Of a DNA stretch of 64,000 bases, positions 1,713-40,875 are shown piece after piece (within the stretch, counting starts at the first letter, position 1; the number at the start of each line of letters is the position of its first letter). Under the pieces are notes generated by a model. It worked only from the letters and a program-made list of their open reading frames with translations. It did no database searches and had not been told where the DNA came from. Location: positions 53,286 to 117,285 of the forward strand of contig CAZTQA010000002.1 in assembly GCA_964615205.1 (NCBI GenBank), in the 5' to 3' direction. Origin of the DNA: an uncultured Candidatus Saccharibacteria bacterium (GTDB lineage: Bacteria > Patescibacteriota > Minisyncoccia > Minisyncoccales > JAGMDC01). The position numbers and the translations under genes were made by a program.

Positions 1713-1714
1713 CT

Positions 1715-7107: not shown

Positions 7108-7117
7108 AATTTGGTTT

Positions 7118-12769: not shown

Positions 12770-13522
12770 TTAGAAAGCGAGAAAGGTTTGGATTTTGGAA
12801 ACAGGAATGGTTATTATTCTGTTTTGAGAATCTTCTTCAGAATCTAAAGTATTTAGTCCTATTAAACCGCCTTCAATGTCAAACAAAGGACTGCCTAAAA
12901 ATTTTTTAGTTTCAAAAATGTTGGTTTCTATTAAACCTTGGCTTATTTCACTCACAATACCTTGATTAACAAAAAGAATGGGTAAAATATCAAACTCTGC
13001 GCCTAAAACAAAAATTCTTCTGCCTAATTTTAGCTTTCCTAAATCTGCATAGCCAGGATTATTCAAGTTTTCCGCTTCAAGCTTGATCTCGGCTAAGTTA
13101 TTTTCCAAGTCCCGCTTGATTATTTTTCCCTGCGTTTTTTTAAAGCTCCCATTAGTTCCTTCTTTAATATAGAAAGCATATTCTGCTCCTTCAGGAACAA
13201 TTTCAGCTAAAGTAACTGCTAAACCGTCGGAAGTAACAATAATTCCGCTACCTTCTAAAATTTTCCCATTTTTTTTAGTTGTTTTTATAGCTAAAATGGT
13301 CTTGTCTATTTTTTCCATTGCCAGTTCCAAAGCTGTATTTTCCTGAATATATATTTCCTTGGTTTCATTAACGTAAACCGGAGATTGATTCAAGCGATAT
13401 TCTAAAAAAAGAGGCCTTTCAATAAAATAAGGCCAGAGAATCTGGTCAGCGAAAATTCCTCCTATAGTTCCTACAATAAAAATAATGACTATCTGAAAAA
13501 TAAATTTAGACATAGTTAACAA
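12770..13522 (-). CDS. HtrA-like trypsin-fold pseudo-protease (catalytic His and Asp missing, no PDZ), membrane anchored
   Basis: N-terminal TM helix; segments align to the HtrA encoded upstream ('GSGIIVTSDGLAVT' vs 'GSGFIISQEGMILT'; 'PLFDIEGGLIGLNT' vs 'PLLNLRGEVIGINT'); the protein contains no His at all; 7-bp overlap with the clpB stop. Confidence 0.5.
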   Translation of the reverse strand: MLTMSKFIFQIVIIFIVGTIGGIFADQILWPYFIERPLFLEYRLNQSPVYVNETKEIYIQENTALELAMEKIDKTILAIKTTKKNGKILEGSGIIVTSDGLAVTLAEIVPEGAEYAFYIKEGTNGSFKKTQGKIIKRDLENNLAEIKLEAENLNNPGYADLGKLKLGRRIFVLGAEFDILPILFVNQGIVSEISQGLIETNIFETKKFLGSPLFDIEGGLIGLNTLDSEEDSQNRIITIPVSKIQTFLAF

Positions 13523-16209: not shown

Positions 16210-16273
16210 ATTCTATATTTATTTTTACTATAAAATGGCTTAAAAATCAAGTTTATAAAATAAAAGGGAAAAA

Positions 16274-22487: not shown

Positions 22488-23825
22488 TTAATATTTTAGG
22501 AATTTGAGTTTTTGATTTTGTCTCTGATTAAGATGCCGAACCAAATATACCAGAACTAAATAATAGACTATTACCCAAAGCCAATGCATATTATTTATAG
22601 CCACAAAAGCCACAGGCAATTGAGAAAAAAAATCAATTGTTTTCACAATATAGGTTAAGAAAAACCAGTTTGGTAAAGAAAAAATCCAACCTAAAAACTG
22701 CCAAAATATGCCTACTAAACCCGAAACAAGACCAAAAATCATAATAAAGGGCAACAAGGGCACAATTAAGACATTGGCAATTGGCGAAACTAAAGAGACA
22801 TAACCGAAATTATAGATTAAGATGGGTAAAGTAAAAACATAAGCTGAAAAAGTCATAGCCAATATGTTTCTAACAAATTCCAAAGGAATTTTTTTAAGCC
22901 TGTGCTGAAAAAAAGGCATTAAATGAATTATGCCTAAGGTGGCTAAAAAAGAAAGCTGAAATCCAACGTCATAACGCAAAAGCAAAGGATTGTAGAAAAG
23001 CATTAAAGCCGCAGCTAAAACCAGGGCCCTGTCTGATTTGTTCATTCTGCCGGTCTTTTCAGCCAACAGAAACAAACCACCCATAATTCCTGCCCTCACA
23101 GCTGAAGCGGGAGCGCCGATCATAATAATATAAAGAAATAAAACAACAATGGCAAAATAAAAGGCCTGACTTTTCCACAAGCCCAATGCCATACCTAACC
23201 ACATCAAAATACCTGCCAGCAAAACAATATGCAGCCCGGAAACACAGGTAATATGCCGGGTGCCGGTAATATTAAGTTTTTCTTTATACTCTTCTGAAAT
23301 CTGCTTTTTATCCCCTAAAATAATGGCTCCTAAGATAGCTGATTGGGGAGGCGAAATATTTTCGTAAAGGGATTTTCTTAATTTGCTTTTAAACCCCAAA
23401 ATCAAAGAATAAAAATTGAGGGAGGCTGAGCCCCCCTCAATTTTTTTAACTTGGGGGAAATAAATTATGGAATAGATGCCGTCTTTAGATAAATATCCTT
23501 GATAATTAAAATCTTCAAAAATTTCAGGCGTTTCCAATTCTCCTTTAATTTCTAATCTATCTCCATAATTGTATTCAGGAAATCTATATGTAAAAACTAA
23601 AATTTTTCCTTCTCCTGCTTCTAAAATTAGCTGTGTATGTTTCTCCCTTACATCCGGTTCTTGGGAAATTCTGCCTGTTAATATTATTGTCTCTCCTGTA
23701 TCGTTATATTTTCTTAAAGAATTATCCGGAATATCTGTTTTAATTGGAAAATTAAAAAAGGAATTCAAAAAAATTCCTAAAATAAAAAGCAAGCAAAGAA
23801 AGAAAACAATTTGAGATAGAGTCAC
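22488..23825 (-). CDS. comEC: ComEC/Rec2 DNA-internalisation channel (competence domain only, no metallo-beta-lactamase domain)
   Basis: multi-TM; 'TRHITCVSGLHIVLLAGIL' matches the ComEC signature; N-terminal OB/DUF4131-like region; GTG start overlapping the nrdG stop (GTGA). Confidence 0.75.
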   Translation of the reverse strand: MTLSQIVFFLCLLFILGIFLNSFFNFPIKTDIPDNSLRKYNDTGETIILTGRISQEPDVREKHTQLILEAGEGKILVFTYRFPEYNYGDRLEIKGELETPEIFEDFNYQGYLSKDGIYSIIYFPQVKKIEGGSASLNFYSLILGFKSKLRKSLYENISPPQSAILGAIILGDKKQISEEYKEKLNITGTRHITCVSGLHIVLLAGILMWLGMALGLWKSQAFYFAIVVLFLYIIMIGAPASAVRAGIMGGLFLLAEKTGRMNKSDRALVLAAALMLFYNPLLLRYDVGFQLSFLATLGIIHLMPFFQHRLKKIPLEFVRNILAMTFSAYVFTLPILIYNFGYVSLVSPIANVLIVPLLPFIMIFGLVSGLVGIFWQFLGWIFSLPNWFFLTYIVKTIDFFSQLPVAFVAINNMHWLWVIVYYLVLVYLVRHLNQRQNQKLKFLKY

Positions 23826-24517
23826 CTTAACTTACATAATTTAAATTTGGGTTTTATCTCCTCTACCACCTCTTTTATCTCATTTTCTTTCAAAACAGGA
23901 AGTTTTAGTATTTCAGGATTTAGAATGGGTTTTTGAGAATTAAATTCCTGCAAAAAATATTTTACATTTTCCACAGCAATCCAATCTGCCAGATCTTGTA
24001 TATCTTCTTTAGTTAGTCCGGGAGCAACAGTTGTCCTGAATTCAAAATCAACCTTACCCTTTTTTAAGATATCAATGCTCTTGTCTATTTTTTTTAAATC
24101 AATTTTTTTTCCGGCATAAAAAGAATATTTTTCTTTGGGAGCTTTTACATCCATAGCCACATAATCAATTAATTTAAGCTGGATTAATTTTTGAAGCATC
24201 TCCGGATTAAAACCGTTGGTGTCTAACTTAATTAAAAAACCCATAACCTTTATTTTTTTTACAAAACCAGGAAGTTCTTTGTAAATAGTGGGTTCCCCTC
24301 CGCAGATTACCGTCCCCTCAAGCATTTTCTGCCTTTCTTTTAGAAAGTCAAAAAAATCTTTTTCTGAAATCTTGGGCTGTTTTTTTATTTCTTCGGGCAA
24401 AACCAGTTCCCGGGAATAGCAAAAAGGACAGCGAAAATTGCATCCAGTTAAAAAAACCGTGGCTGATAGTTTGCCAGGGTAATCTATTAAGCTTAATTTT
24501 TGGATTCCTCCGATCAT
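23822..24517 (-). CDS. nrdG: Anaerobic ribonucleotide reductase activating protein (radical SAM)
   Basis: 'GCNFRCPFC' CxxxCxxC cluster motif; translationally coupled to nrdD. Confidence 0.75.
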   Translation of the reverse strand: MIGGIQKLSLIDYPGKLSATVFLTGCNFRCPFCYSRELVLPEEIKKQPKISEKDFFDFLKERQKMLEGTVICGGEPTIYKELPGFVKKIKVMGFLIKLDTNGFNPEMLQKLIQLKLIDYVAMDVKAPKEKYSFYAGKKIDLKKIDKSIDILKKGKVDFEFRTTVAPGLTKEDIQDLADWIAVENVKYFLQEFNSQKPILNPEILKLPVLKENEIKEVVEEIKPKFKLCKLR

Positions 24518-26622
24518 AGTGCCTTAACTTTGAATTCTTTTCTTTCTCTAAATTCCTGCTGTTTGCCGCGATTCCATTGCTGAACCGGCCTCAAATAACC
24601 CACTACTCGAGAATAAACTTCGCAAGGCTGTTTAACCAAGCATTTGGGACATTCAAAATGTTCACCGCTTAAATATCCGTGAACCGGACAAATAGAAAAA
24701 GTAGGACTAATAGTGATATATGGAAGATGAAACTTTTCAAAAACTTTTCTCACCAATGCCTTAACTGTTTCCACATTAGAAATCCTTTCTCCTAAGAATA
24801 AATGTTCTACTGTGCCTCCGGTATACTTACATTGAAGTTCGTCTTGGAGTTTTAAGGCCTCAAAAGCATCATTAGTATAATTAACCGGCAACTGACTGGA
24901 ATTGGTATAATAAGGATTTTCTTTTACTCCGGCCGTAATAATATCCGGGTATTTCTCTTTGTCTTTAAGGGCAAAACGGTAAGCTGTGCTTTCAGCCGGA
25001 GTGGCTTCCAAGTTATAAATGTTGTTGGTTTCTTCCTGATACTTAATCAACTTTTGACGCATAAAATCCATTATTTCCAGAGCAAACTTTTTTCCTCTGA
25101 TAGAAGCAATATTCTCTCCCAAGAAATTCAAAAGAGCTTCATTCATGCCCACTAATCCTATAGTAGAAAAATGATTAGCAAAATAATTTCCTCTGGCTTT
25201 TTTTACGCCTGACAAGTAAAACCTGGAATAAGGATAAAGTCCCTTTCCAATTAAATCCTCTATGGCTTTTCTTTTAATCTCCAAGCTATCCCTGGCTAAA
25301 TCCATCATTTTTTCTAATCTTTCAAAAAATTCCTTTTTAGTCTTAGAAACATATCCCAGGCGCGGAAGATTAATGGTAACAACACCTATACTTCCTGTAA
25401 GCGACCCACTTCCAAAGAGACCACCACCACCACGGTTGTAAAGGTCTTTTAAATCCAAACGAAGCCGGCAACACATCGAGCGCACGTCATCAGGTTTCAT
25501 TTCTGAATTAATATAATTGGCAAAATAATTAATTCCGTATTTAGCCGAGGCTTCAAAAATTAAATCGTAATTGGGGTCCTGCCATGGAAAATCTTTAGTG
25601 ATATTAATGGTCGGAATGGGAAAATGAAATGGACGGGAAGAACGATCCCCTTCCAACATAGTTTCATAAAGAGCTTTATTAAAAAGTTTCATTTCTTCCT
25701 CAAACTCACCGTAATTTTCTTTTTGGGGTTTTCCTCCAATAATAACCGGCTGATTAGCAAAAACAGAAGAAGGTTTCAAATCCAAAGTAATATTAGAAAA
25801 AGGACACTGGAACCCTACTCGAGTGGGTACAGCCATATTAAATAAAAATTCCTGCAACGCCTGCTTGACTTGACTAAAGTTTAAATTGTCATAACGGATA
25901 AAGGGAGCTAGTAAAGTATCAAAATTGGAAAAAGCCACTGCGCCAGCGCATTCTCCCTGAAGAGTATATAAAAAATTAACCGTCTGGCCTAAAGCAGCCC
26001 TGAAATGCTTGGCTGGTTTGGTTTCTACTTTTCCTGGTACGCCTCGAAAACCTTTTAACAAAAGATCATACAAGTCCCAGCCCATACAATAACAGGAAAG
26101 AGTGTCTAAATTATGAAGATGCAAATCAGCTGATTCATTGGCTTCCCTTATTTCCTGAGAATAAATTTTGTTAAGCCAGTATCTTTTAATAATATATGTG
26201 ACGCCATAGTGGTTTAATCCCTGCAAAGAAAAAGCCATATTAGCGTTTTCCTGCACTTCCCAGTCCAGTTTTTCCAAATACTGGTCAATTCTGTCCACAG
26301 CTTCTTCGCTTACAGCAATGGCCTCCCTGATTCTTCTTCTCTGCTCGCGGTAAAGAATATACGCTTTGGCAGTTTCCACTAAATCTTCCATAATTAAAAC
26401 CTCTTCCACAATATTTTGAACCTGTTCCACATTGGGAATCTCATCTTTCTTAAATCTGCGGTTTAAAATTTTAGCTACCCGATCTGAAACTTTTTTAGAT
26501 TTCTTTCCGTCGCCCTGGCCAGTGGAAGTAATGGCTTTATAAACAGCCTTGGTTATCTTTTCTTGGTCAAAATCCACTATTGTTTCGTCTCTCTTTTCAA
26601 TTTTAGTAATATGGTTTTTCAT
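24514..26622 (-). CDS. nrdD: Anaerobic ribonucleoside-triphosphate reductase (class III RNR)
   Basis: N-terminal ATP-cone; C-terminal Zn ribbon 'CPVHGYLSGEHFECPKC'; glycyl-radical motif 'RVVGYL'. Confidence 0.9.
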   Translation of the reverse strand: MKNHITKIEKRDETIVDFDQEKITKAVYKAITSTGQGDGKKSKKVSDRVAKILNRRFKKDEIPNVEQVQNIVEEVLIMEDLVETAKAYILYREQRRRIREAIAVSEEAVDRIDQYLEKLDWEVQENANMAFSLQGLNHYGVTYIIKRYWLNKIYSQEIREANESADLHLHNLDTLSCYCMGWDLYDLLLKGFRGVPGKVETKPAKHFRAALGQTVNFLYTLQGECAGAVAFSNFDTLLAPFIRYDNLNFSQVKQALQEFLFNMAVPTRVGFQCPFSNITLDLKPSSVFANQPVIIGGKPQKENYGEFEEEMKLFNKALYETMLEGDRSSRPFHFPIPTINITKDFPWQDPNYDLIFEASAKYGINYFANYINSEMKPDDVRSMCCRLRLDLKDLYNRGGGGLFGSGSLTGSIGVVTINLPRLGYVSKTKKEFFERLEKMMDLARDSLEIKRKAIEDLIGKGLYPYSRFYLSGVKKARGNYFANHFSTIGLVGMNEALLNFLGENIASIRGKKFALEIMDFMRQKLIKYQEETNNIYNLEATPAESTAYRFALKDKEKYPDIITAGVKENPYYTNSSQLPVNYTNDAFEALKLQDELQCKYTGGTVEHLFLGERISNVETVKALVRKVFEKFHLPYITISPTFSICPVHGYLSGEHFECPKCLVKQPCEVYSRVVGYLRPVQQWNRGKQQEFRERKEFKVKAL

Positions 26623-27487: not shown

Positions 27488-29164
27488 TTATTTTAGTCTT
27501 TCTTTGATATCCTTAATTTCTTTTTCAATTTTTTCCCTACTAATCCGTAAGGCCTCACTAATATGTTGATAAGCCTTTTTTTCCTGTTCGTTAAAACCTG
27601 GCTGATTGTCAACCATTTCAATCCTTTTAACTACCTCCTTTTCCAAAGAATCAAAGTTCTTTTTAAGCGATTGTTCTGCCTCCCAGGCCTCTCTCGTCAG
27701 TATCTTTTTATTCTTCTGATTCTTGCCATAAAAATATAGCATTAGGGCCATTCCAATAATCAAAATTATGAAGAAAACTAAAGACAGGTTCTTAAAACTA
27801 ATCATTAACTGTCCGAGAATAATTCCATTAAAGAAAACTTCTATTTTCTTTTCTTCTGAATAATTACTAATGGCTCCTCTTTGGTCTTGGGCCATAACAT
27901 ATAAAGAATAAATGCCTGGCTTTAACAGTTCCTTAGTGGAAAAGGACCACTCCCCCTGCTCATCACTTGGAATTATCCATTGCTTTACTTCCTGATTATC
28001 TTTTTTAAGCAAAATGACGATTTCAACATTGAACAAAGAGCTACCCTGAAGATAAAAAGTTTCTTCTCCAGCCATATACTCTTCCGGCCAGACAATAATT
28101 TGAGGAGTTTCTAATGGCTCTATGTTTATAAGCGATTCAGTTTGAGCAATATTGCCAGCCTGATCTATTGCCCTAACAACAATCCGATGGCTGCCCGGCT
28201 CCAATAAAGACAAAGAAACAGAACCAATCTGGGCTAGCATTAAGTCAAAGAAATCGGCCTGGTCTATCTTCACCTTGTAAGCGTTTATGCCTGAAGTTTC
28301 ATCAAAAGTTTCAAAATAGAGATTGGGTTGTGGATTAGTCTGGTCGCCGCTGTTATCAATAGTTATTTCAAAAGAAGAAGGCGGTAAAGTATCAACCTGA
28401 ATCTTGTAATGGCTTGTCTCTAACCAGCCATCATCATTGGCTAATCTTAAATGAAAATACCAAACACCATCATCTAATCCATAATATTTTGTTGACTGAA
28501 TAACGCCCTCTGAAGATTCATCAGGAATTGTTTCTGGATCCTTATCTAAAACAAAGCTTACTTTCTTAATATCCTGGTTTAAGGTCCATTCAAATAAAGG
28601 TGAATTATTGTTATACCAACTGTCCTGCTTAGGATGAGTAGAAGAAAAAATACCAGTTGAGGAAGTTTTTACATCCTCAAAGATAAGATATTTTGCTTTT
28701 TTTAAATAACTTAAAACGTTCGTTCCTTTGCCGTCATCAGCTAAAATTTGGGCATCGCCAAAATTAAGCTCTATATCGCCTTTCTCTTTTGCTTTAAATT
28801 CAATAGTAATTATTTTTCCTTGGCCTTGAAAGCCAGGCGTAGGCAAACCGCCGGCAAAATTTATACTGCCTTTAGTATCAGAAAAGCTTGGTTCTTCTGG
28901 CCAAAGAGAAAAAATAGAATTATCTTTAGAAAGAGAAAGAACCTCTAATTTATCTGTTGGAAAATAGATTACTGCTTGGCTAGCATTAATAGGAATAAAG
29001 TTACTATCAACCATTACTTCTATAGAGAATTTTTCTCCCATCTTAAAACTCTTGCTGGTTGGTGAAAGAAATAAAGAAGCATTGCTGCCTTCAGCTACTG
29101 CAGGCAGTCCGCTAAGTACCACGAATAAGACACTAAATACCGCTAATAATAGATTATTTCTCAT
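27488..29164 (-). CDS. Secreted surface protein, paralogue 1 of 4: cohesin-like N-domain, Ig-like middle domains, C-terminal TM anchor and cytoplasmic coiled-coil tail
   Basis: signal peptide; N-domain shared across the four paralogues ('...ILADDGKGTNVLS'); motifs 'DGVWYFHLR', 'VDTLPP' and 'AIDQAGN'; C-terminal TM helix followed by a Lys/Glu-rich tail. Confidence 0.5.
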   Translation of the reverse strand: MRNNLLLAVFSVLFVVLSGLPAVAEGSNASLFLSPTSKSFKMGEKFSIEVMVDSNFIPINASQAVIYFPTDKLEVLSLSKDNSIFSLWPEEPSFSDTKGSINFAGGLPTPGFQGQGKIITIEFKAKEKGDIELNFGDAQILADDGKGTNVLSYLKKAKYLIFEDVKTSSTGIFSSTHPKQDSWYNNNSPLFEWTLNQDIKKVSFVLDKDPETIPDESSEGVIQSTKYYGLDDGVWYFHLRLANDDGWLETSHYKIQVDTLPPSSFEITIDNSGDQTNPQPNLYFETFDETSGINAYKVKIDQADFFDLMLAQIGSVSLSLLEPGSHRIVVRAIDQAGNIAQTESLINIEPLETPQIIVWPEEYMAGEETFYLQGSSLFNVEIVILLKKDNQEVKQWIIPSDEQGEWSFSTKELLKPGIYSLYVMAQDQRGAISNYSEEKKIEVFFNGIILGQLMISFKNLSLVFFIILIIGMALMLYFYGKNQKNKKILTREAWEAEQSLKKNFDSLEKEVVKRIEMVDNQPGFNEQEKKAYQHISEALRISREKIEKEIKDIKERLK

Positions 29165-30455
29165 ATAATTTATCTTTGATTTCCTTGCTATGATTATTTG
29201 TTTTCTTTTTTATTTCTTCTAAGTTTTTTCTTAATTTTTGTAAGGCCCTATTTTTTCGCCACCATAATAAAATTATTCCTATAACTAAAAGGATAATCGT
29301 CAAAAGTAATAAGATTACTTCATGCCAATTAAGATAAAGATTTAAAATGTTAAGGCCATTTTTGGAAATATAGAAAAATTTTCCAATAGGTATGACTTCA
29401 ATTTTCTGGATGCTGTCTCGGTAATTGCCAGCCGCATCAAATGCCCTAACTATTATCTCATACTCACCAAATTCCAAAGAAGGCATTTTATAAGGAGCAT
29501 TAACTTCTACAAAAAAGATCTCTTTTTGATCTATTAAATCAATATATCTTAACTCATAATGGTTTATTCCAGAAACAGCATCAGTAGTAATAAATCTAAC
29601 AATCGGCTCTTTAGAAACAGAAGCCGGCGAATGTAAAACTGGATCAAAAGACAGTTCAAAATCAGCTGGAGGAGTAGTGTCAACTTGAACAACATAGCGA
29701 CTAATACCGCCCCAAACCTTTCCTTTTTTGGCTTTTATAGAAAAATACCAAATGCCGTCAGCTAAATCACTAAAAGAAACTGAAGTATAATCGCCTTCTG
29801 CTAAATTATCTGGCTCATTATAATAATTAGTACTGATATCATAACTAAAAGCATTGACCAAATCCTCTTTTTCCCAATTAAAAGTAGGATTATTATTTTT
29901 ATACCATTTATTCTGGTCAGGATGAGTTGAAGAAAATACTTTCGGCCCTTCTGGCGGTGGAATAATAAGAGCATAAACTCCTCTGCCCAGAGAACTTAGA
30001 ATATTGGTCCCCTTACCATTATCTAAGAGAATCTGGGAAGAATCTAAAAAAGAAATTTTTGTTTCCCCAGGAGCAATAGCTCTAAAAGTAATAGTAGAAA
30101 CCAAGCCAGAAGAGGTATTAATTCCTGGCGAGGGAATACCGCCCTGAAAAGAAGCAAACCCCTCAATATTAGAATAATTGGGCTGGCTAATCCAAACCGA
30201 AATAAACGATTTGCCAGTTGTTGGACTGGCAATTTGCAGTTTTTTCGGATCAAATTTAAAATCAACTTTTACAGCATTGATATTGTTGTTGCCAGTATTA
30301 ATAAAAACAGAAACATCAAAAGTACTGCCAATATTAAAAGTGCCTTGGCTGGGTGAAAAATATAAAGAAGCACCGGCTCCCTTTACTGCAAAAGGCAATC
30401 CACTGAATATCAGTAATGAAAGAATGAATATCAATAATAAATTAATTTGTTTCAT
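29154..30455 (-). CDS. Secreted surface protein, paralogue 2 of 4 (cohesin-like N-domain, C-terminal TM anchor)
   Basis: same architecture; 'QILLDNGKGTNILS', 'DGIWYFSIK', 'VDTTPP' and 'AFDAAGN'; overlaps its neighbours. Confidence 0.5.
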   Translation of the reverse strand: MKQINLLLIFILSLLIFSGLPFAVKGAGASLYFSPSQGTFNIGSTFDVSVFINTGNNNINAVKVDFKFDPKKLQIASPTTGKSFISVWISQPNYSNIEGFASFQGGIPSPGINTSSGLVSTITFRAIAPGETKISFLDSSQILLDNGKGTNILSSLGRGVYALIIPPPEGPKVFSSTHPDQNKWYKNNNPTFNWEKEDLVNAFSYDISTNYYNEPDNLAEGDYTSVSFSDLADGIWYFSIKAKKGKVWGGISRYVVQVDTTPPADFELSFDPVLHSPASVSKEPIVRFITTDAVSGINHYELRYIDLIDQKEIFFVEVNAPYKMPSLEFGEYEIIVRAFDAAGNYRDSIQKIEVIPIGKFFYISKNGLNILNLYLNWHEVILLLLTIILLVIGIILLWWRKNRALQKLRKNLEEIKKKTNNHSKEIKDKLYEK

Positions 30456-31639
30456 TTCTTAAGAATTCTCCACATTATTATTATTGGAGTTAGAAACATT
30501 ATTGAAACTACTAAAACGATCAGCCACCAGGAAAAAAGCTTTCCTTTTATCTCCAATCCTTTGTTCTCAATATGGGAAACCAATGGTGTCATCAGTCTAA
30601 AACGGGCTTCAGCTTCTCTGTTATTGCCGGCTTTATCAACTGCTTTTATTATAACATTGTATTTTCCAGCTTTGATAAAAGGTACTTTGTAGGGACTAAT
30701 TTGCTCTGAAAAAAAGGAAGGAAATGTTTCTGGATTACTTAAATCGCTGATACCTACTTCATAATGGTCAACGCCAGAAGCATCATCTTTTGCTTCAAAA
30801 TAGACCATAGTTTGGTAACCAACCAAACGTGAGTAGGTTTCTACTTTAGGACTGAATTCATGGGGTGGCGTTGTATCTATCCTCACAGCCACAGTAGAAG
30901 TTTGACCCCAGACATCGTCTTTTTTCTGGCGGATGTGAAAATACCAAATACCATCTTTGGTACTGGGAAAGGAAATCATGGTTGTTTCTCCCTCGCTCGT
31001 GCCATCTGGCCGGTTGTTAGGATTCTGGTCAAAAATCCATGAAAAATCAGTTGCTCCTTTTTCTTTTTCCCAACTGAAACTTGGACTGGAATCGGTATAC
31101 CAGACGTTAGGATTGGCATGGGTCGGAGAAAAAACTTGAGGACCTTCTGATGCCGGAATTAAAATTTGATACTCGCCATTAATTTTATTAGTCAAAATAT
31201 CAGTTCCTTTGCCATCATTCAAAAGAACCTTGGATCCGTCTTTGAATTTTATCTTCGCTGTTCCTGAAGCAACAGCCCGAAAAGTAATTGCAGAAACCAA
31301 GCCAGCTGAAGTAGTAATGCCTTCCCTCACACCTCCCTGAAAATTGACAATGCCTATTTCGTTGGAATAATTAGGCGGTATAGTCCACTGGGAAACAAAA
31401 GAATCGCCAGTGGTTGGAGAAGTAATTTGCAAAATCTCTGCTGGAAATTCCAGTTCAGCCCAAATCACATTAATATCATTGCCTTCGGTATTTAAAAAAA
31501 TAGAAACCGTAAAAGCACTTCCTACCAAAAAACTACCCGAAGAAGGAGAAAGATAAAGAGAAGAACTTGCACCTTGTGCAATAGTTATTAAGCCAAGACT
31601 AAAGATTATAATAAAAAATATTAAAAATGATTTATTCAT
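30452..31639 (-). CDS. Secreted surface protein, paralogue 3 of 4 (cohesin-like N-domain, C-terminal TM anchor)
   Basis: 'KVLLNDGKGTDILT', 'DGIWYFHIR', 'IDTTPP' and 'AVDKAGN'. Confidence 0.5.
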   Translation of the reverse strand: MNKSFLIFFIIIFSLGLITIAQGASSSLYLSPSSGSFLVGSAFTVSIFLNTEGNDINVIWAELEFPAEILQITSPTTGDSFVSQWTIPPNYSNEIGIVNFQGGVREGITTSAGLVSAITFRAVASGTAKIKFKDGSKVLLNDGKGTDILTNKINGEYQILIPASEGPQVFSPTHANPNVWYTDSSPSFSWEKEKGATDFSWIFDQNPNNRPDGTSEGETTMISFPSTKDGIWYFHIRQKKDDVWGQTSTVAVRIDTTPPHEFSPKVETYSRLVGYQTMVYFEAKDDASGVDHYEVGISDLSNPETFPSFFSEQISPYKVPFIKAGKYNVIIKAVDKAGNNREAEARFRLMTPLVSHIENKGLEIKGKLFSWWLIVLVVSIMFLTPIIIMWRILKK

Positions 31640-32771
31640 TTTTAGAAATTAGAAATTTTTTAAAAATCCAAAAAACCACTAACAAAATGATAATGATTAA
31701 TATAAACAAATAGATAACTTCTGTCTTTTTCTCTGGAATATATTCTGCTATTCTTTCATTGCCTGCCTGGTCAACTGCTTTGACAACAATCTTCGTTTTT
31801 AAATCCTGGTCTTCTAATAAATAGGGACTGGTAATTTTTTTAAAATCCTTATTGCCTTCTTTAATTTCATAATAATCTATTCCTGAAGTTTTATCGGTGG
31901 TGCTAAAACTTAAAAAATACTTTCCTTCAAATATGGCTGGTTCCTGACCAATCTCCAAATTAAATTCTTGAGGCAAAGTATTGTCTATCATTGCCCGATG
32001 AGAAACAGCTTCTGACCAATCTTTGTCCGAAAACTTCTGTTTTAATGTAAAATAATAGATGCCGTCTTCAAGATCCGCGTATTTCATATCACCCACCCAA
32101 AATGATTCATCTCCTTCTGGTTTGTCGGGAATTTCATCTGGCTGGGCTAAAGGATCACGGCTCAAAAGATAGCTGTATTCAGCTTCTTCATTTAAATCCC
32201 AGTGGAGACGAAGAACATTAAACTTTGACCACTCATATTGACTAGGATGAGTATTAGAATATATTTCAACTAAATCTTCTGGTTTTTCAATAATCTCATA
32301 ATCACTCTCAAGAAAATGTAAAGAAGAAACTGTACCTTTACCATCATTTAATAAAACTTGAGAACTATCTTCAAAATCAATTTTAGTTTGAGAAACCTGC
32401 TTAGATTTAAAAACAATTCTGCCAACTAACCCCTGACCATTAAATCCATTAGGCACGCCGGCAATAAAGGATATTTGATTTTTGGAAATACTCGGCTCTT
32501 TAGCCCAGAGGGTTAAGAAAGAACCGCCTTTATTAAATTCAATAAACTCTAACAATTCATCAGGGTAATTTAAATCTATGCCTACGGTATTGATTTCTTC
32601 ATTTTCGGTATCCAGCATCAACTCAAGAATAAAAGAATCATTCTCGTAAACAGTCTGCCCCTGTGGCAGGAAATAAAGAGTAGAAGCTAAAGCTATATCA
32701 GCAATAATAAACAAGAGACAAGTGACAAGGGATAAGTAACAAGTTTTTGATTTTAAACTGTGACTTTTCAT
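31632..32771 (-). CDS. Secreted surface protein, paralogue 4 of 4 (cohesin-like N-domain, C-terminal TM anchor)
   Basis: 'QVLLNDGKGTVSSL', 'DGIYYFTLK', 'IDNTLP' and 'AVDQAGN'. Confidence 0.5.
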   Translation of the reverse strand: MKSHSLKSKTCYLSLVTCLLFIIADIALASTLYFLPQGQTVYENDSFILELMLDTENEEINTVGIDLNYPDELLEFIEFNKGGSFLTLWAKEPSISKNQISFIAGVPNGFNGQGLVGRIVFKSKQVSQTKIDFEDSSQVLLNDGKGTVSSLHFLESDYEIIEKPEDLVEIYSNTHPSQYEWSKFNVLRLHWDLNEEAEYSYLLSRDPLAQPDEIPDKPEGDESFWVGDMKYADLEDGIYYFTLKQKFSDKDWSEAVSHRAMIDNTLPQEFNLEIGQEPAIFEGKYFLSFSTTDKTSGIDYYEIKEGNKDFKKITSPYLLEDQDLKTKIVVKAVDQAGNERIAEYIPEKKTEVIYLFILIIIILLVVFWIFKKFLISKNE

Positions 32772-32808
32772 TTTTGATTTTTGATTATTTTAGTGTAGGT
32801 TGACTACG

Positions 32809-33753
32809 TCAACCTGTCCAAAAGTACATCATAATGCTAAAGTCTGTCAAATTAACTATACCATCTTTATTTTGGTCAGCACAGGTATTGGATTTTCCCC
32901 ACCAATAAAGCAAAATGCTGAAATCAACCATATTGACTTTGTTGTCATGATTAAGATCAACTCCTGAACAAGGATGGGCTTCCATATAAAAACTTAATTC
33001 ATTGGAAAATTCACTCACCAAACCTTGAGGAGAAACAACTTTGGCTTTAACTGAATAATTACCTTCTTTGCTTAAAACACTTGAATCAAAAGAATAAAGC
33101 CATTTTCCTTTCTCGTCGGCTTGAACGGTTTTAGAAATATTGGCTAAGGAATTAATAAAAACAGTCATTTCAGATTCGGACGCGCTATAACCAAAGATAT
33201 CCAAATCTCCCCCCTGGTAAATATTATTTGCGTTTAGTTCAATAGTGGGCGGGAAAAATATGTTTGAGAAAGTAGTTGTAGTATCTCTATTGAGAGAAAT
33301 AGTAAAATTTAAAGTGGGTGATTTTCTATTTTCTTCATCTTCTGCATATAAACCAAACTGCCAAACGCCTACCGGAATTCCAGTTAATTTCAAAGAAAAA
33401 TTTCCTGAAGAGTCAGCTAATCCAGTTTTAGCCACCACATTGTTTCTCATAACAGCAATAAAAGCATTGGGGTAAGCTGCTCCTTTGAACACAACATTGG
33501 CATAATAGGTTATTGTTCCGCTAACGCTCCCGCCTCCAGAAGGCGGAGGCGTTGGTGCGCCGCCCTCAACAGTAGCTGAAACACTCATCCCGCTTTCAAC
33601 TGGCTGGGCTTGAATTTTTTGACTAAAAACAAAAATAGTAAAGAAAACTAAAAATAATAAAAAAACGGTTCTTATGGATAAAAAAAACCGCCAAAAGGAA
33701 AAACTTTTTTTATAATTCAAAAAATTGTTTGTTTTTTTGTTTAAAGGAAACAT
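32809..33753 (-). CDS. Secreted dockerin-containing protein (carboxypeptidase-regulatory-like beta-sandwich domains plus a C-terminal type-I dockerin)
   Basis: signal anchor; two canonical Ca-binding dockerin repeats 'DLNHDNKVNMVDFSILL' and 'DQNKDGIVNLTDFSIMM'. Confidence 0.7.
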   Translation of the reverse strand: MFPLNKKTNNFLNYKKSFSFWRFFLSIRTVFLLFLVFFTIFVFSQKIQAQPVESGMSVSATVEGGAPTPPPSGGGSVSGTITYYANVVFKGAAYPNAFIAVMRNNVVAKTGLADSSGNFSLKLTGIPVGVWQFGLYAEDEENRKSPTLNFTISLNRDTTTTFSNIFFPPTIELNANNIYQGGDLDIFGYSASESEMTVFINSLANISKTVQADEKGKWLYSFDSSVLSKEGNYSVKAKVVSPQGLVSEFSNELSFYMEAHPCSGVDLNHDNKVNMVDFSILLYWWGKSNTCADQNKDGIVNLTDFSIMMYFWTG

Positions 33754-33761: not shown

Positions 33762-34724
33762 TTAAACAGATGTCTTTTCTCCCTTCACCAATACCTTCAC
33801 AGCCAGTTTCCATCTCTTTCTGGTTTTAAAGAAAAAGATAAAAATAAGCGCTAAGCCAACAACAATTCCCAAGATTATCTTCCAGGGCAAAACCCAGAAA
33901 GTGATAACGCGAGAATCTATATTCTGGTTGGACACCCCGTAGACCCCGAAGATAGTGGCTGTATATTTCCCAAACAGCCATTTAGTGTCCCATTCTGCCT
34001 TAATCTTTCTGACAGCTCCCGGCATAACATTTTCCTGCGGAAATTCCAGTTCTTTAACATTATTGTTAAACCAGTTAGCAATCACTATATATCCTTTTGG
34101 CTTGACATGAACAGTTCCCTTGTTTTCAAATCTTATTTCAAAGGCCACGGGCCCGTACTCTTGGAAGGAAGATGTTGAAAAATCTTTCACGCTAAGTTTC
34201 TCTTTTAAATCCCCTGCCACCATTAATAGAACAAGACTTCCTGTTTTTGTTGAAATGACAGCTCCGGTTCCATCTTCCTGCATAGAACCGGTTATTCCTA
34301 CTAAAACAGAACCGTATTTTCCGCCTGGCTCTGCATTTTGAGGTACTTCTATTATGAAATTAACTGTTTGGTCTCCTTTCCCTTCTAAGGTAAACTCTTC
34401 TGGTGTTATGGTTATCCATTTGCGGAGAGAATAGGTTGTGTCTTCTTCCTGTTCAGAGGTGGTGACTACCCGCCCCTCTTCTCCTATGGCCACAAAGTTT
34501 TCTGCCTCCATTTTTATAGAAATAGCCGCGTCTGAAAAATTAGACACTTTTAGTGTATTGGCAATTATATCTCCTGGATTGGCTGTAAGTTCAAAAGTCA
34601 AAGGAGAAACTGTAACGCCCGGCCCCTGGGCATTAACCTGAAAAGCTAAAACCAATCCTATAAGACCTACACTTATTAAAATTAATGATTTTTCCCAATT
34701 CATTTTAATGGGTTTTCTTAGCAA
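33762..34724 (-). CDS. Cell-surface beta-sandwich protein with C-terminal TM anchor (DUF916/CscA-like topology), paralogue B
   Basis: signal peptide; C-terminal 'WVLPWKIILGIVVGLALIFIFFFKTRKR'; paralogous to the 35994..37070 protein. Confidence 0.45.
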   Translation of the reverse strand: MLRKPIKMNWEKSLILISVGLIGLVLAFQVNAQGPGVTVSPLTFELTANPGDIIANTLKVSNFSDAAISIKMEAENFVAIGEEGRVVTTSEQEEDTTYSLRKWITITPEEFTLEGKGDQTVNFIIEVPQNAEPGGKYGSVLVGITGSMQEDGTGAVISTKTGSLVLLMVAGDLKEKLSVKDFSTSSFQEYGPVAFEIRFENKGTVHVKPKGYIVIANWFNNNVKELEFPQENVMPGAVRKIKAEWDTKWLFGKYTATIFGVYGVSNQNIDSRVITFWVLPWKIILGIVVGLALIFIFFFKTRKRWKLAVKVLVKGEKTSV

Positions 34725-34804: not shown

Positions 34805-35953
34805 TTAATAGGTCGGCGTAGCAATAAAAACAAGGGTATCAGTATAAGTTCCAGCTGGAGTAGTTGCGGCAATGGCTGCATACAAAGCCACCTCAACAAT
34901 ACCGCTGCTGACAACCCCGGATGCAGAAGCAATTTCCTGGTTGCTGGTGCTTATTATCCCAGTAGCAGTCTCATCTGCGAACGTATTTTCAGTTAAAGTA
35001 GTTCCACTGGAAGTATATAAAGCATATCCCTCTGTTCCATCCGCAATATCATTTGCATTGTCAGCTTCAATTAACTCCGTTGTACTAGAACAGTATAATC
35101 CTGCATTTGTTGTACCGTCACCCGTGCTCCTAGCCGTAACTGAAACTCCACCACCACCATTTGATGAAACAGTAAGCTGGAAAGGAGAAGAATTAGAACT
35201 AGTATCACCAGCTGCATTTTTAGTAGCCCAGGTATCATCTGTAGCTCCACCTGTCCAGGTTCCAAAACCAACAGCGTAATCGTCACATGAGAAAGTCAGA
35301 TATTCCTCAACGGTTCCAGTAACTCCTACCCCGGCAAGCATGGCAACCCGAGCTGCTCCAGATTCATCTGATGTTGTTACAGTAACAGAACAAACATTAC
35401 TGTCGTCTCCTGTACCGCAAGTGGCTGTTGCCGGGTTTGTGATATGGGCTGTTCCTCCTGCTACCGAACCAATCTCTATAGTAATCGGTTCCTCATCAGC
35501 AATAGTTGTTCCAGTACAAAGAGTAAAAGTAATCGTGCTTGTTCCTATTCCAGTAACACCCAGTTCATCATCAACACAAGCGCCTTCGTCAAGAGTATAA
35601 TCATCTGAATCATCAGCAATGTCTATATCTGCAAAAACCACGCTAGCAACATTAAAATCGGCTTCAAAGGCAACTTGTATGGTATCACTGTCTGTTAAAG
35701 CACCAGCTTTAATAGTGAAAGCAATCGTGTGATCTGAAGCAGTGCCAAACCGCGAATCTGATAATGTGTCTTTGACGCTGGCTAAAGTGGCTTCTGCGTT
35801 TTCAGTAATTAATAAAAACGAGAACACCAAAGTACCCATGCAAACAAGCGCAATAATTTTTTTACTTAATTTTTTTACCTTTTCTGGCATTTTTTTAGAA
35901 AAATTTAATCTTGCCTGCCGACCTTTTAATTTTAAACAGGCACATAAACACAA
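34805..35953 (-). CDS. Thr/Gly/Asp-rich secreted surface protein with conserved C-terminal motif '..TYTDTLVFIATPTY'
   Basis: signal peptide (the likely real start is Met22, near 35890); T/G/S/D-rich beta composition; C-terminus shared with the 1240-aa giant. Confidence 0.45.
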   Translation of the reverse strand: MCLCACLKLKGRQARLNFSKKMPEKVKKLSKKIIALVCMGTLVFSFLLITENAEATLASVKDTLSDSRFGTASDHTIAFTIKAGALTDSDTIQVAFEADFNVASVVFADIDIADDSDDYTLDEGACVDDELGVTGIGTSTITFTLCTGTTIADEEPITIEIGSVAGGTAHITNPATATCGTGDDSNVCSVTVTTSDESGAARVAMLAGVGVTGTVEEYLTFSCDDYAVGFGTWTGGATDDTWATKNAAGDTSSNSSPFQLTVSSNGGGGVSVTARSTGDGTTNAGLYCSSTTELIEADNANDIADGTEGYALYTSSGTTLTENTFADETATGIISTSNQEIASASGVVSSGIVEVALYAAIAATTPAGTYTDTLVFIATPTY

Positions 35954-35993: not shown

Positions 35994-37070
35994 TCAATCT
36001 GTGGAAAACTTTTTTCTTGTTAAAATGACTTTCGCGGCTGCTCTAATTCTTTTCCTCATTAAGATCAAAATGACAAGGACAAAAAGAATTATTAGGAAAA
36101 TTTTCCATGGGAAAATCCAAAAGCTGATATACTTGTCTATCTGGTTATTTCCAAAATTCATTATTAAATGGGCTTGAAATTTGCCCCAAAGTAAATTTCT
36201 AGAAATAAAATTAGAAATAGTTTCTGGCAGATATTTAGCAATTTTTTCTGAAAGCGAAGCTTTGAATTCAACCGGAAATCTGCGGATTTTGCCAGGCATA
36301 ATAGTGGTTTCAGCCACAATTGTTTCCCCTACTGTTCTGCCAGTCCAGGAAGTAATAACTAATTTGCCTTCTGGCTTGATATGGAAAAGGTCATTATTTT
36401 GAATACGCAAAGTAAAAGGCAGTTCGCTGGCACTGACAATAAAAAAAGGTTTTTCTTCCTTGGCTAAAGCTTTGGCAAACAGGCCGCTGGCGCTGGCTAA
36501 AGCATTTTCTAATTTCTGAAGATGGAAGTTTTCAGGAATATTAAACTCAACCACAGTTAAGGGTTCTGATGATCTTTGTTTGTCTTTCATATCAACGGAA
36601 AGCAGAAATAAAACACCAATTTCAGGAACAGCTTTAACTGTTTTATTTTCAAAGTAATAAGAAGGCAGTTTGGGTCCAAATAAGATAGTAACATAATATC
36701 CTCCAGCATTTACTTCTTGAGGGATATTGATTTCAAACTTAACTTTTTCTGACTGGTGGGGCTCTAAAATAAAATAAGGGTTTTCAATTTCAAACCAATC
36801 CCGCGGATTAACAGCTGTTTCCTCTGGAAAATCTATAGCTCCTTCCTCGCCCACTGCTTCAAAGTTAATTGTTTTGGCTTCAAAGGGTATGCTTAGATCG
36901 CTTTTATTTAACAAATAAATCCTGTCCTGATAATTCTGGCCTTTTTCCAACTCCAACTCAAAAATCGGCGGAGAGACAAAGATGTTTATTCCCTCATTAG
37001 CATGACATATTCCGTTAATGGATATTAACACCAAACTAACTAAAATTATTTTTAATATTGTGCTGTGCAT
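35994..37070 (-). CDS. Cell-surface beta-sandwich protein with C-terminal TM anchor (DUF916/CscA-like topology), paralogue A
   Basis: signal peptide; C-terminal 'FWIFPWKIFLIILFVLVILILMRKR'; 19-bp overlap with the upstream giant gene. Confidence 0.45.
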   Translation of the reverse strand: MHSTILKIILVSLVLISINGICHANEGINIFVSPPIFELELEKGQNYQDRIYLLNKSDLSIPFEAKTINFEAVGEEGAIDFPEETAVNPRDWFEIENPYFILEPHQSEKVKFEINIPQEVNAGGYYVTILFGPKLPSYYFENKTVKAVPEIGVLFLLSVDMKDKQRSSEPLTVVEFNIPENFHLQKLENALASASGLFAKALAKEEKPFFIVSASELPFTLRIQNNDLFHIKPEGKLVITSWTGRTVGETIVAETTIMPGKIRRFPVEFKASLSEKIAKYLPETISNFISRNLLWGKFQAHLIMNFGNNQIDKYISFWIFPWKIFLIILFVLVILILMRKRIRAAAKVILTRKKFSTD

Positions 37071-40000
37071 ATGAATATAAGCGTGGTTGAATAATCACCG
37101 GCTAATTGGGTGGTTGGAACCGAGGATTTAACAGTCATGCGGTAAGTGCCACCAGTATCTGCTTGGGAAACCGGCTGGCTGTAATCGCTAATAACATTGC
37201 CGGGGCTAGTAGAAGGAAACTTAGCATAGTTGCTGCCTGAATTGTAGCGGTCGGAACCTTCAACTAAAGGATCATTAGAAGTATAGCCAAATCCGCAATA
37301 GCTGCTGTTGTCTTTGCAATAGCCGCTCCATTCTAACGGAGAACTGTAAGTGCCAGAGAAATCATCTATATATATAGTAGAGGGAAAATCAACATGACGG
37401 AAAACATTAGGCGTATAAGCGCTTGAAGCCCAACTGGTTACCATGTAGCCATGGCTGGCACTGGTAGTCACCTTTAAATCAAGCCAGTCAGTACTGGTAA
37501 AGTTAGGCGATTCTAAAGTGCCGATTTCAAGTGTTGGCGGATCATCTGTATCGCTGTCAACAATCTCAAAATCCAGGCCTGGCCGCAGACCGCAATAGAA
37601 AGTGCCATAAGTTGGCGGATCATCTATGGATGGTTCAGTATTATTAGCATCAATATCTTCCCTGCGCCAGTCATAACTACCGCTGTCGCCAATAATATTA
37701 TCATGACCTCCTCCAGAATAATAATTGGAAATAACATACTTGTTATCGCCTGCCCACTCGTAATAATCATATTCTCCATAACTGGTCTGCCATTTCACAT
37801 ATAAATTATAGTAATAGAAGGTATAACCAGAAGAAGTTCTGGAATATTCCCTAATCCTAATAGCGCCATTATTGTTTGGCTGGGGAATCTTGCCATTGCT
37901 GTCAGTGCCAGTTTCCTGATAAGTTGAGGCACTGCCCCAGGAACCACTGCTATATTTCCAAACAGTTGGTTGGGGCGTGCCAGAGTTTTCAGAAATGACC
38001 ACATCAGTATCACCTGTATCAATATTAGCCAAAGTCCCAGCATCAACCAAATGCGCACCAACATACCAATCACTATTCAATGTCGCCCCAGCAGCCGGCG
38101 CAGCTGGCTCACTACTGCTATCTAAAACCGTATTCAAGGCAGTGACTGTGCCGGAATTGACTTTCATGTAATCTACCTTGGCTTCCTGGATAATTAATTC
38201 TGAACCAGTGTCATTGTTGAAATTCCAGGAACCAGAAGCTGGCGCGTAAGTGACAGTGGTCTTGTCGTTTAAAGCGCTCTCCCCGCCTTTAATTTCCAAA
38301 TTCTCTCCAGAACCAACTGTCACTGTAGCATTTTCTTGGATAGTCACTTGGCATTGCCGAGTAACTCCAGCACCATCAAAATCCTTGGCATATGACCAGT
38401 AATCAGTTGCACTGTCTGGCACAGCATAAGCGCCCCAAATAGATAAGTAGCCGTCATTAGCTGCGTGGTCCATTGAATACAAACTACCAGAAATATTATA
38501 GGTGGAAGCTGAAGAATCCCACATCCTGATATATTGGCCAGCGCTAACATTGATTGTTCCGTAAACATCACCGCCAATGTTTTTGATGTCATTAATGCAG
38601 TAGCTGCCTGAACCATCTAAGACTAAAATAGAACTGGTCCAGGTAGTTGATAAGCCACCAACATTGTTCTTGAATTGGCCTTGCACAGTAATTGTCCTGT
38701 CAGTAGCGTCAAAGCTGTTCAAGCTGGTCAAAGTAAAGTTATTGGTAGCCTTCAATTCATTGGTAGAGATCGTCCAACCTCCGCCAGAATTGTTAAAAAC
38801 AATATTGTAAAAAGTTTTGCCAGCAGCAGTGCCGTCAGTAACAATGGTTTCGCCGGTATTTGCTGAATCAAAGGTAACTGTGCCTTCTTGACTAGTGAAT
38901 GTGCCTGAATTAGACCAGGAACCTCCAACATTAATAGCATAATAACTGCCTGAAACATCTAATGTAGAATTAGCATTAGCAATAGTCAAATCATTTTCCA
39001 CATCAATAGCTCCGCTTAAGGTAACTGTATTGGCGCTGCTCTTGGCTACTTGCAAGTCATAGAAGTCATGATTTTCATCAGTGCCTCCTGGAGACAAAGC
39101 GCTGGCAGTTGTTTCATCAAAGACAACAGTAGTAGGATAAGTTTCTGATTCCTGGGCAGTAAAAGTAGCTCCTCCTGCTACTGTCCAGTCAGTGCCCAAA
39201 TTAATAATTGTGCCATTGCCAGGTTCATTAGCACCGCCAGATTCAGTGCAATCCAAAGTGCCATTAACTGTCACAAAAGTACCAATATTCAAATCCCAGC
39301 CATGAGTTTCAAATTTATCACCACTGGCTACTGTTAAACTGTCAGCTGTCATATCGCTCTTTAATTTGGTCACAGCTGGTGAATTTCCTATTTGTACTGT
39401 CCCCATATTCTCTTTAGTGCCATTTGAATCAGTAAAATAACGAGGATAAGTATCATCACCGCCGTCAAAGATTAGAGTGCCTGAACCTTTGGTGTAATCG
39501 CCACCGCTTTCAATGGTTAAATCTCCATAAACAGTTAAGCTATTGGTACTGCCAACGAAACTAGCAGCGTTCTTAATCAAGAAAGTGCTGGTGGCTGATA
39601 AAGTAGAATTGCCAAATGCCAGAACAGGATTATTAGTATCTGCTTTCAAAGTAACTGCATTAGTTCCATCACCAATTGTCACATTGTTATTAGCTACAAT
39701 GTTACCTAGAATTGTATAATTCGGCGTGCCGCTGGTTGGACTGAATTCCAAATTATAATAAGTGGTGCTGGTAATATTAGTAGCTGATGTACCAGTATAT
39801 TTAATTGTAGAATTGTTGTAAGTGAAAGTGCCATTCTTCACAAATGGCGTTGTTGACCCAGTCAAAGTAATGGTTTTATTAGACCCGTCAAAGATATGGT
39901 TATTAGTACTGCCAGCAATAGTTAAAACATTATTAACTGTAAAATCACTAGCAGCAGTAGTTGTGCCAGTTTCAGTGTTGTCGCCTAAAGAAAGATTGTA

Positions 40001-40774: not shown

Positions 40775-40875
40775 ATCTCCTGATGCAACTGTATAAAGTA
40801 CATCGGTATCTTCTCCTGAATCCCAAAGAGCTAATTTGGCATTTGTTACTGAAGTAGAAGTCTGGCTTTCTATCC

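Follow-up and report, generated by a model that had tools for sequence, protein, structure and literature searches.

Membrane-anchored cohesin paralogues and a dockerin adaptor as the possible base of a Pam-type surface fibre in Patescibacteria

The Pam pilus of Candidatus Mycosynbacter amalyticus is built from the pilins PamA, PamB, and PamE, with PamT as the tip, PamC and PamD as chaperones, and PamR as the terminator and anchor (Troman et al., bioRxiv 10.64898/2026.03.03.709456). Its pilins consist of an N-domain, a linker strand, and a truncated immunoglobulin (Ig)-like C-domain, and they polymerise by donor-strand exchange; the chaperones are PapD-like with a C-terminal transmembrane (TM) helix, and PamR, proposed to end and anchor the fibre, combines a pair of RbmA-like FnIII domains with an additional N-terminal strand and a C-terminal TM helix (10.64898/2026.03.03.709456). 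Pam pilins were placed mainly in Saccharimonadia and Microgenomatia, and cohesin, dockerin, and Parcubacteria/Paceibacteria are unmentioned in that preprint (10.64898/2026.03.03.709456). Here, we describe a locus in a stretch of 64,000 nucleotides (hereafter the window) from contig CAZTQA010000002.1 of an uncultured Candidatus Saccharibacteria bacterium, in which a gene for a dockerin protein is followed by four tandem genes, W1 to W4, for TM-anchored proteins with a cohesin domain. These five make up the distal half of an operon of ten genes, the order of which is conserved in at least 78 Patescibacteria species. We read all ten as one Pam-type surface-fibre operon, in which the dockerin protein would serve as a PamR-like terminator and would obtain its membrane anchor in trans by cohesin–dockerin binding, a model that we favour at little better than an even chance.

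Like the Pam system, the locus is an operon of the candidate phyla radiation (CPR) with all products exported, and its pilins appear to have a C-terminal acceptor domain of the Pam type and a linker strand. Two chaperone-like proteins resemble PamC and PamD in architecture, with two β-sandwich domains and a TM anchor. The dockerin protein resembles PamR in its two RbmA-like Ig domains and extra N-terminal strand, but it carries a dockerin in place of the TM helix, and two to six TM-anchored cohesin proteins follow it in this locus and its relatives.

The anchoring scaffoldins of cellulosomes (SdbA, OlpB, OlpA, and OlpC of C. thermocellum and ScaC of A. cellulolyticus) are attached to a Gram-positive wall by S-layer homology domains or sortase, and their cargo is an enzyme-loaded scaffoldin. 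The proteins described here differ in their C-terminal TM anchor, in having one cohesin each for one dockerin, and in a cargo that is a non-enzymatic pilus-type adaptor. Non-cellulosomal pairs, such as the GH84/GH33 toxin complexes of C. perfringens and the cohesin of Archaeoglobus fulgidus, link soluble enzymes or have no known function, and we know of none that lies in a pilus operon or forms an array of TM-anchored single-cohesin paralogues. The occurrence of non-cellulosomal cohesins and dockerins was reportedly surveyed by Peer et al. in 2009. In the full-text literature searched, no description of cohesin–dockerin systems in CPR was found, and the only related item was a remark on Southlakia, where an essential dockerin-domain envelope protein was read as glycan-related by the authors (PMC10633639).

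The role proposed here for the dockerin protein is analogous to that of PapH/FimI, the last subunits that donate a strand, cannot accept one, and end and fix the fibre; this analogy holds within the model only. PapH and FimI stay in the outer-membrane usher, whereas fixation here would be the task of a separate dockerin–cohesin module. CPR cells have neither an outer membrane nor an usher. The locus also resembles the WxL/Csc loci of Firmicutes (DUF916/WxLIP, DUF3324, WxL, and LPXTG proteins) in encoding DUF916/WxLIP_PGBD homologues with a C-terminal TM segment, but neither a WxL-domain match nor an LPxTG motif was found in the operon proteins, and, to our knowledge, cohesin and dockerin are not part of Csc loci. 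The novelty lies in the system (the pairing of the two domains, the array of paralogues, and the connection to a pilus) and not in the domains themselves, which automated annotation already labels as "cohesin domain-containing protein" for W3 relatives and as "dockerin type I domain-containing" for the dockerin family.

The four paralogues and the dockerin gene were all recovered as open reading frames (ORFs) on the minus strand at the positions first given for them: the dockerin gene at 32809–33753 (314 amino acids, aa), W1 at 31632–32771 (379 aa), W2 at 30452–31639 (395 aa), W3 at 29154–30455 (433 aa), and W4 at 27488–29164 (558 aa). The dockerin gene lies upstream of W1 with a gap of 37 nt, and W1/W2, W2/W3, and W3/W4 overlap by 8, 4, and 11 nt, respectively. 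W1 and W2 share an architecture of a cohesin-like N-domain, an FN3-like domain, an Ig-like domain, and a TM helix. W3 has its cohesin at about residues 27–165 (29961–30377), followed by two FN3/Ig-like domains and a TM segment with a cytoplasmic helix (helix at residues 377–432 in the AlphaFold2, AF2, model), and W4 has cohesin-like, FN3-like, and Ig-like domains, an extra Big_13 Ig domain (Pfam, 49 bits), a TM helix, and a charged cytoplasmic tail of about 85 aa. Each of the four has a hydrophobic signal-like segment at the N-terminus and a single TM-like segment towards the C-terminus, after which comes a tail rich in K, R, and E, as the initial annotation had proposed for the anchor and tail. 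The full-length identities were 29–34%. The N-domains are homologous, with pairwise BLAST E-values of 6e-17 to 2e-51 and 53% identity between W2 and W3, and a hidden Markov model (HMM) built from W3 orthologues only found W2, W4, and W1 at E 8e-50, 1e-26, and 3e-20, respectively (Z = 1e6). The GKGT and D.AGN motifs quoted in that annotation are invariant columns of the W1–W4 alignment (145–148 and 334–338 in the numbering of the first sequence).

The N-domains had been called cohesin-like from their hydrophobic periodicity, and both profile and structure comparisons agreed. W3 matched Pfam Cohesin (PF00963) with 30.9 bits against a gathering cut-off of 24.1, and most of the best 120 W3 homologues carry a precomputed PF00963 match. 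Among PDB sequences, W3 and the W3-family profile reached only cohesins at E≤0.01. The fold is a nine-stranded jelly-roll β-sandwich that superposes on solved cohesins, and its nearest structural relatives are cohesins whose structures were determined together with a bound dockerin. HMM and fold thus both identify the N-domains as genuine cohesin modules. Relatives of W3 at 55–74% identity number in the hundreds, and every named one is from Patescibacteria; the named homologues, from Parcubacteria, Nealsonbacteria, and Paceibacterota, agree with the CPR-like organism suspected at the outset.

The dockerin reported in the upstream gene was likewise found. The module occupies residues 261–314 (32812–32973) and contains two Ca2+-loop motifs of 12 residues, with a helix after each (DFSILLYWW and DFSIMMYFW); a motif scan placed the loop DLNHDNKVNMVD at 32923–32958 and the loop DQNKDGIVNLTD at 32842–32877. 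A type I dockerin is defined by a duplicate of about 22 residues with a 12-residue Ca2+ loop having D/N at positions 1, 3, 5, 9, and 12 and then a helix, and DLNHDNKVNMVD and DQNKDGIVNLTD show this duplicated loop-plus-helix pattern. Pfam Dockerin_1 (PF00404) passed marginally, with 23.4 bits against a cut-off of 22.9, and a profile of the CPR dockerin module made from 30 relatives matched 14 dockerins in the PDB and no other protein there (best E 8e-7). In the AF2 model of the whole protein (predicted local distance difference test score, pLDDT, 89), each loop leads into a helix (residues 275–283 and 302–313), and the duplicated pattern was present at the extreme C-terminus in 120/120 best homologues. 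The upstream protein carries a genuine dockerin. Neither of the outcomes that the initial annotation had named as refuting it, N-domains of a non-cohesin fold or a lack of HMM support for the dockerin, was therefore observed. In the clade of the window, cysteines C262 and C291 flank the first dockerin repeat (pattern C..ADLN...C.DQN) and could form a disulfide clasp; they are missing from a more distant dockerin subtype (DLSILLYYY...VDFPD).

The arrangement was compared across Patescibacteria, in which at least 472 species-level genomes encode a relative of W3. For 78 loci from species-representative genomes, chosen via the cohesin protein, ORFs were labelled with HMMs made from the window proteins. 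A recurrent order was observed, consisting of a giant protein with a pilin-type C-domain, a chaperone-like protein, a small pilin, a second chaperone-like protein, the dockerin protein, and two to six cohesin proteins, and it was conserved in Nealson-, Paceibacter-, Uhr-, Kerfeld-, Moranii-, and Portnoy-bacteria, Spechtbacterales, and Minisyncoccia. Between 44028 and 27488, the window has the identical order, and no intergenic gap exceeds 101 nt. The dockerin gene lay directly before the first cohesin gene in 62 of the 65 genome loci with enough upstream sequence. In an independent sample of 80 metagenome contigs picked by the dockerin motif alone, a cohesin gene directly followed the dockerin gene in 56/61; two of the exceptions had an extra intervening gene, two contigs ended before the cohesin position, and the fifth was the gapped DG_74_2 contig. 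The paralogue orthogroups hold the order W1-(W2)-W3-W4 across genomes, with W1 mostly first and W4 mostly last in the array; the paralogues did not arise by recent duplication. A W3-type protein was present in essentially every locus (the single exception was truncated at a contig end), and 206/219 cohesin proteins had a C-terminal TM segment. The five-gene arrangement is far beyond chance: the gathering cut-offs of Pfam are passed for Cohesin and Dockerin_1 alike, and hundreds of genomes share the arrangement.

The initial annotation overlooked that the proximal half of the operon, also on the minus strand, encodes Pam-type pilins and TM-anchored chaperone-like proteins. The pilin (34805–35953, 382 aa) comprises an N-domain, a linker strand VGVTGTVEEYL (residues 209–219), and a Pam-type C-terminal domain (residues 256–382). 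The pilins of the related loci share the motif V.VSATV.E.L, which lies just past the signal peptide in 200-aa pilins and between the N- and C-domains in 360–420-aa pilins, the latter position being the site of the Pam linker (donor) strand. When scanned with the NCBIfam Pam pilus models (NF058578–NF058581), 20/36 locus-family pilins matched NF058581 (CPR_Pam_pilin_C) at E≤0.01 (best 7e-14) and three matched PamT. Every match to the Pam models is far under the NCBIfam cut-offs, and the similarity is weak; a PDB sequence search with the 382-aa pilin gave no match, the Pam pilin structures not being detectable by sequence. These profile matches indicate that the locus pilins are homologous to Pam pilins at the family level, without equivalog membership.

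The two chaperone-like genes flank the pilin gene. Chaperone-like protein 1 (35994–37070, 358 aa) has DUF916/WxLIP-type β-sandwich domains and a C-terminal TM segment at about residue 314, with a sub-threshold match to Pfam WxLIP_PGBD (18.6 bits). Chaperone-like protein 2 (33762–34724, 320 aa) has a DUF916/WxLIP domain that passes PF06030 (28.1 bits, cut-off 27.3) and a C-terminal TM segment at about residue 273; 34/53 members of the chaperone-like family matched PF06030. Matches of this family to GxxExxY/PD-(D/E)XK and 23S-IVP/Avd were rejected, as they came from small upstream genes fused in frame by the ORF caller.

The first two ORFs of the operon encode giant proteins. The second (37052–40774, 1240 aa) is a candidate tip adhesin with a Pam-pilin-type C-terminal acceptor domain at residues 1095–1240 (E 2e-45 with the pilin C-domain HMM of the locus family, pilC), and it has neither a signal peptide nor an N-terminal hydrophobic segment. 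The first (40876–44028, 1050 aa) is the N-terminal part of a giant surface protein, with one TM-like segment near residue 125 and no Pfam match, and its region is fused to a pilin-type C-terminal domain in five related loci (p1050+pilC in L025, L032, L033, L053, and L065). The 1240-aa ORF begins at TTG, and its frame is open upstream to an overlap with the end of the 1050-aa ORF, which is in a different frame (junction 40774–40900). A single exported tip protein of about 2300 aa may thus be encoded here by a split gene or by a gene with a frameshift, the latter either programmed or due to a sequencing or assembly error. A basic segment, ISLKEAAKLSGYSSDYIGYLIRTKKIKGK, which looks helix-turn-helix-like by eye, precedes the TM-like segment of the 1050-aa protein (43700–44028). 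A terminator-like hairpin at 44035–44017 may mark the upstream operon boundary; the remaining promoter and terminator scan was uninformative.

The dockerin protein consists of a signal-like segment, an N-terminal β-strand, a proline/glycine (P/G) spacer, two Ig/FnIII-like domains, and the C-terminal dockerin, with neither a C-terminal TM segment nor an acceptor C-domain; no other TM-anchored PamR-like protein was found in the operon. The putative donor strand MSVSATVEG (33562–33588, residues 56–64; AF2 strand at residues 57–62), followed by the spacer GAPTPPPSGGGS, fits the pilin linker motif V.VSATV.E. A first, stricter regular expression for the strand was passed by 30/120 dockerin-family members only. 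A looser form was passed by 48/115 dockerin-family proteins and 14/20 small pilins, compared with 2–3% of the controls (6/219 cohesin proteins, 2/67 chaperone-like proteins, and 10/458 other exported ORFs). Foldseek matches of the Ig body include V. cholerae RbmA (E 2e-6), and the NCBIfam PamR model gave a weak match (E 1e-4, 21 bits against a cut-off of 300) to the N-terminal third of the dockerin protein, over model positions 9–108. Across the family, the C-terminus is constant and the N-terminal part modular: a strand with a P/G or Glu-rich spacer, a strand with Cys-rich DUF4215 repeats, a full pilin N-domain with the motif S.SDT.SDSR...H..F, or a PamT-like N-terminus (NF058579, down to E 4e-9 in the family scan). 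The shortest forms, of 160–190 aa, have a strand or hairpin, a proline-rich linker, and a dockerin, and nothing more.

In the proposed model, the fibre would be assembled on the outer face of the membrane by donor-strand exchange between Pam-type subunits, with the giant tip protein and the pilin, each with an acceptor C-domain, forming the pilus and the two DUF916-type membrane-anchored proteins acting as chaperones. After export and presumed cleavage of its signal peptide, which the model places after IQA at about residue 49, the dockerin protein would plug the acceptor groove of the last pilin with its N-terminal β-strand. It would be the last subunit and would end the chain, because it has no acceptor domain of its own. 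Docking of the dockerin to a cohesin is the natural reading, because the two gene types are almost always adjacent. W1 to W4 are predicted to be bitopic, each holding its cohesin on a stalk of two FN3/Ig-like domains over the C-terminal TM helix, so that the dockerin would bind about three domains above the membrane and fasten the fibre base to it. PamR would in effect be split into two polypeptides joined by a cohesin–dockerin plug. The W3 type is the best candidate for the dockerin receptor, and the most probable one, judged from its universal presence in the compared loci; the other paralogues, which are conserved individually, may well make up a heteromeric platform at the fibre base. Extended beyond this locus, the model would have the cohesin–dockerin pair replace the PamR TM helix or the usher in a large part of Patescibacteria, with a strand-spacer-dockerin adaptor capping the pilus and plugging into a platform of two to six cohesins; we put this generalization forward tentatively, as somewhat short of an even chance.

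Several results weigh against the proposed model. The Pam model that it builds on is a preprint and partly AlphaFold-based (10.64898/2026.03.03.709456). The 382-aa pilin of the window matched NF058581 at E 0.056 only (13.5 bits, cut-off 55), and no Pam model was matched by the chaperone-like family in the NCBIfam scan. The strand motif is short, and its regular expression is passed by 42% of the dockerin family. As to the cohesins, W4 scored 21.9 bits, under the Pfam cut-off of 24.1, and W1 and W2 alone gave no Pfam Cohesin match. One dockerin type faces four cohesin types here and two to six elsewhere, a stoichiometry for which the model has no explanation. A mirror-tree comparison of the dockerin with the cohesin N-domains, with neighbour domains as controls, gave correlations throughout (r 0.48–0.79); the W3 cohesin was top among the cohesins and not above the W3 middle domain, and no cohesin-specific co-evolution was seen. 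If the N-terminal hydrophobic segment were left uncleaved, it would already anchor the dockerin protein in the membrane, and no tether would be needed. Finally, Jorgensen-, Lipton-, and related bacteria have a short dockerin adaptor with two cohesin proteins after giant proteins and small TM proteins, and pilin and chaperone genes were not detectable in these loci. The cohesin–dockerin tether is therefore broader than the Pam-like module, and it may serve to hold other fibres or to attach giant proteins directly.

These last loci bear on a rather unlikely alternative, in which the module is a general surface tether independent of the pilus, with the dockerin protein a secreted spacer or adhesin held by the TM-anchored cohesins and merely co-transcribed with the fibre genes. 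In several lineages, no pilin or chaperone gene could be detected with the module, but where pilus genes occur, the order chaperone–dockerin–cohesins is fixed, and in 45/57 and 39/44 loci the dockerin gene comes directly after a gene of the chaperone-like protein 2 family. In favour of this alternative, dockerin proteins differ widely in their N-terminal and middle modules, some with Cys-rich DUF4215 repeats; the variants nevertheless include pilin-type strands, pilin N-domains, and PamT-like N-termini, and the minimal strand-linker-dockerin forms leave no room for an adhesin function. The essential dockerin-domain envelope protein of the saccharibacterium Southlakia also speaks for a tether of this kind (PMC10633639).

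It is less probable still, and in our judgement improbable, that the cohesin-like paralogues do not receive the dockerin at all and form an assembly platform or wall-spanning stalk, as a substitute for the usher, with the dockerin as a Ca2+-binding module for another target such as the cell wall, an S-layer, or the host surface. Against this stand the adjacency of dockerin and cohesin genes in nearly every locus, whether sampled from the cohesin or the dockerin side, the cohesins in dockerin complexes as the closest structural relatives of the N-domain, and the dockerin profile, for which all matched proteins of solved structure are cohesin-binding dockerins. Four distinct, anciently diverged paralogues in a fixed order would suit a heteromeric machine better than redundant receptors, the mirror-tree has no cohesin-specific signal, and the dockerin helices are unusually aromatic (DFSIMMYYW); these points are to the credit of such a platform.

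The initial annotation had read the module as a cellulosome-style scaffold, with GH1, GH5, and GT2 genes on the same strand. The glycoside hydrolase (GH) GH1 was confirmed (21263–22468, 308 bits), and the glycosyltransferase (GT) GT2 remained sub-threshold (17601–19160, 25.6 bits, cut-off 27; a multi-pass membrane protein). The supposed GH5 (19169–20149) had no GH5 match at E≤0.001, and its one match was to Glyco_hydro_42 (26.9 bits, cut-off 21) over 70 residues (56–125). Although cohesin and dockerin modules are present and the GH1, GH42-like TIM-barrel, and GT2-like genes lie on the same strand 7–10 kb downstream, a cellulosome-like scaffold displaying glycoside hydrolases on the cell surface is already contradicted and very improbable, since the single dockerin found in a six-frame motif scan of the window is on a non-enzyme, each polypeptide has one cohesin, no carbohydrate-binding module was matched in the operon proteins (Pfam), GH1 has no signal peptide, the GH and GT proteins have no dockerin (motif scan), SdpI-like, NrdD/NrdG-like (by eye), and ComEC genes separate the GH genes from the array, and the conserved neighbours across the 78 species are pilus genes and not carbohydrate-active enzymes. 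Across about 160 related loci, the dockerin HMM matched the adaptor family alone; a search with the dockerin module alone for enzyme carriers returned only fragments of ≤95 aa, which are uninformative on architecture.

CPR/Patescibacteria are generally taken to live on host cells to which they attach, and their surface fibres rank among the foremost candidates for making host contact. A description of the Pam pilus came only in 2026, and its fixation to a cell without an outer membrane or usher rests on one predicted TM helix. The locus suggests a different solution in Parcubacteria/Paceibacteria, namely a modular cohesin–dockerin plug between fibre and membrane. If the proposed anchoring is true, it would be the first use of cohesin–dockerin in pilus anchoring or assembly, it would give host-contact fibres a non-covalent, Ca2+-dependent, and possibly releasable attachment, and it would extend cohesin–dockerin biology from enzyme complexes to organelle anchoring. 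The minimal adaptor of about 160 aa (strand, linker, and dockerin) has obvious uses in protein engineering.

Several related loci had additional features. One Nealsonbacteria contig (L022) carries two complete chaperone/dockerin/cohesin sets, at 162–7246 and 13199–16257, and in another genome two full cohesin-mid-Ig units are joined in one ORF of 807 aa (L011:943–3366). In three metagenome loci, a protein of about 810 aa that lacks annotation lies between the dockerin gene and the expected cohesin position (L152:6691–9114, L151:2662–5094, and L162:5661–8096); downstream cohesin genes were seen in L152 only, as the contigs of L151 and L162 end first. Small genes of the 23S-rRNA-IVP/bAvd-like four-helix-bundle and PD-(D/E)XK_3/GxxExxY types lie in or beside the operon in some genomes; candidate loci, with the insertion at the chaperone-like genes, are L025, L033, L034, L053, and L065, and a 130-aa ORF between the dockerin and cohesin genes of L076 (1131–1523) may be of the four-helix-bundle type. 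The presence of an Avd-like protein could mean that these surface proteins are targets of a diversity-generating retroelement.

Elsewhere in the window, 47/50 ORFs of ≥150 aa are on the minus strand; two of the three plus-strand ORFs lie inside longer minus-strand ORFs, and 49480–50364 stands alone. The GC skew was negative or zero in 31/32 windows and the cumulative skew falls almost monotonically; the stretch seems to fall within one replichore, with its genes co-oriented to an extreme degree. The tRNA and Rfam scans of the 64 kb gave no match. Between the surface operon and the GH genes, a pair recognised by eye (23822–26622) encodes an anaerobic ribonucleotide reductase-like protein (702 aa, with the C-terminal glycyl-radical motif RVVGY) and a radical-SAM activase-like protein (231 aa, CNFRCPFC). 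In a 1168-aa protein (7820–11326), ComEA-like helix-hairpin-helix motifs occur together with a Lamin Tail Domain and a PQQ-type β-propeller; with a ComEC gene nearby (22488–23825), this protein may be an unusual DNA-uptake receptor.

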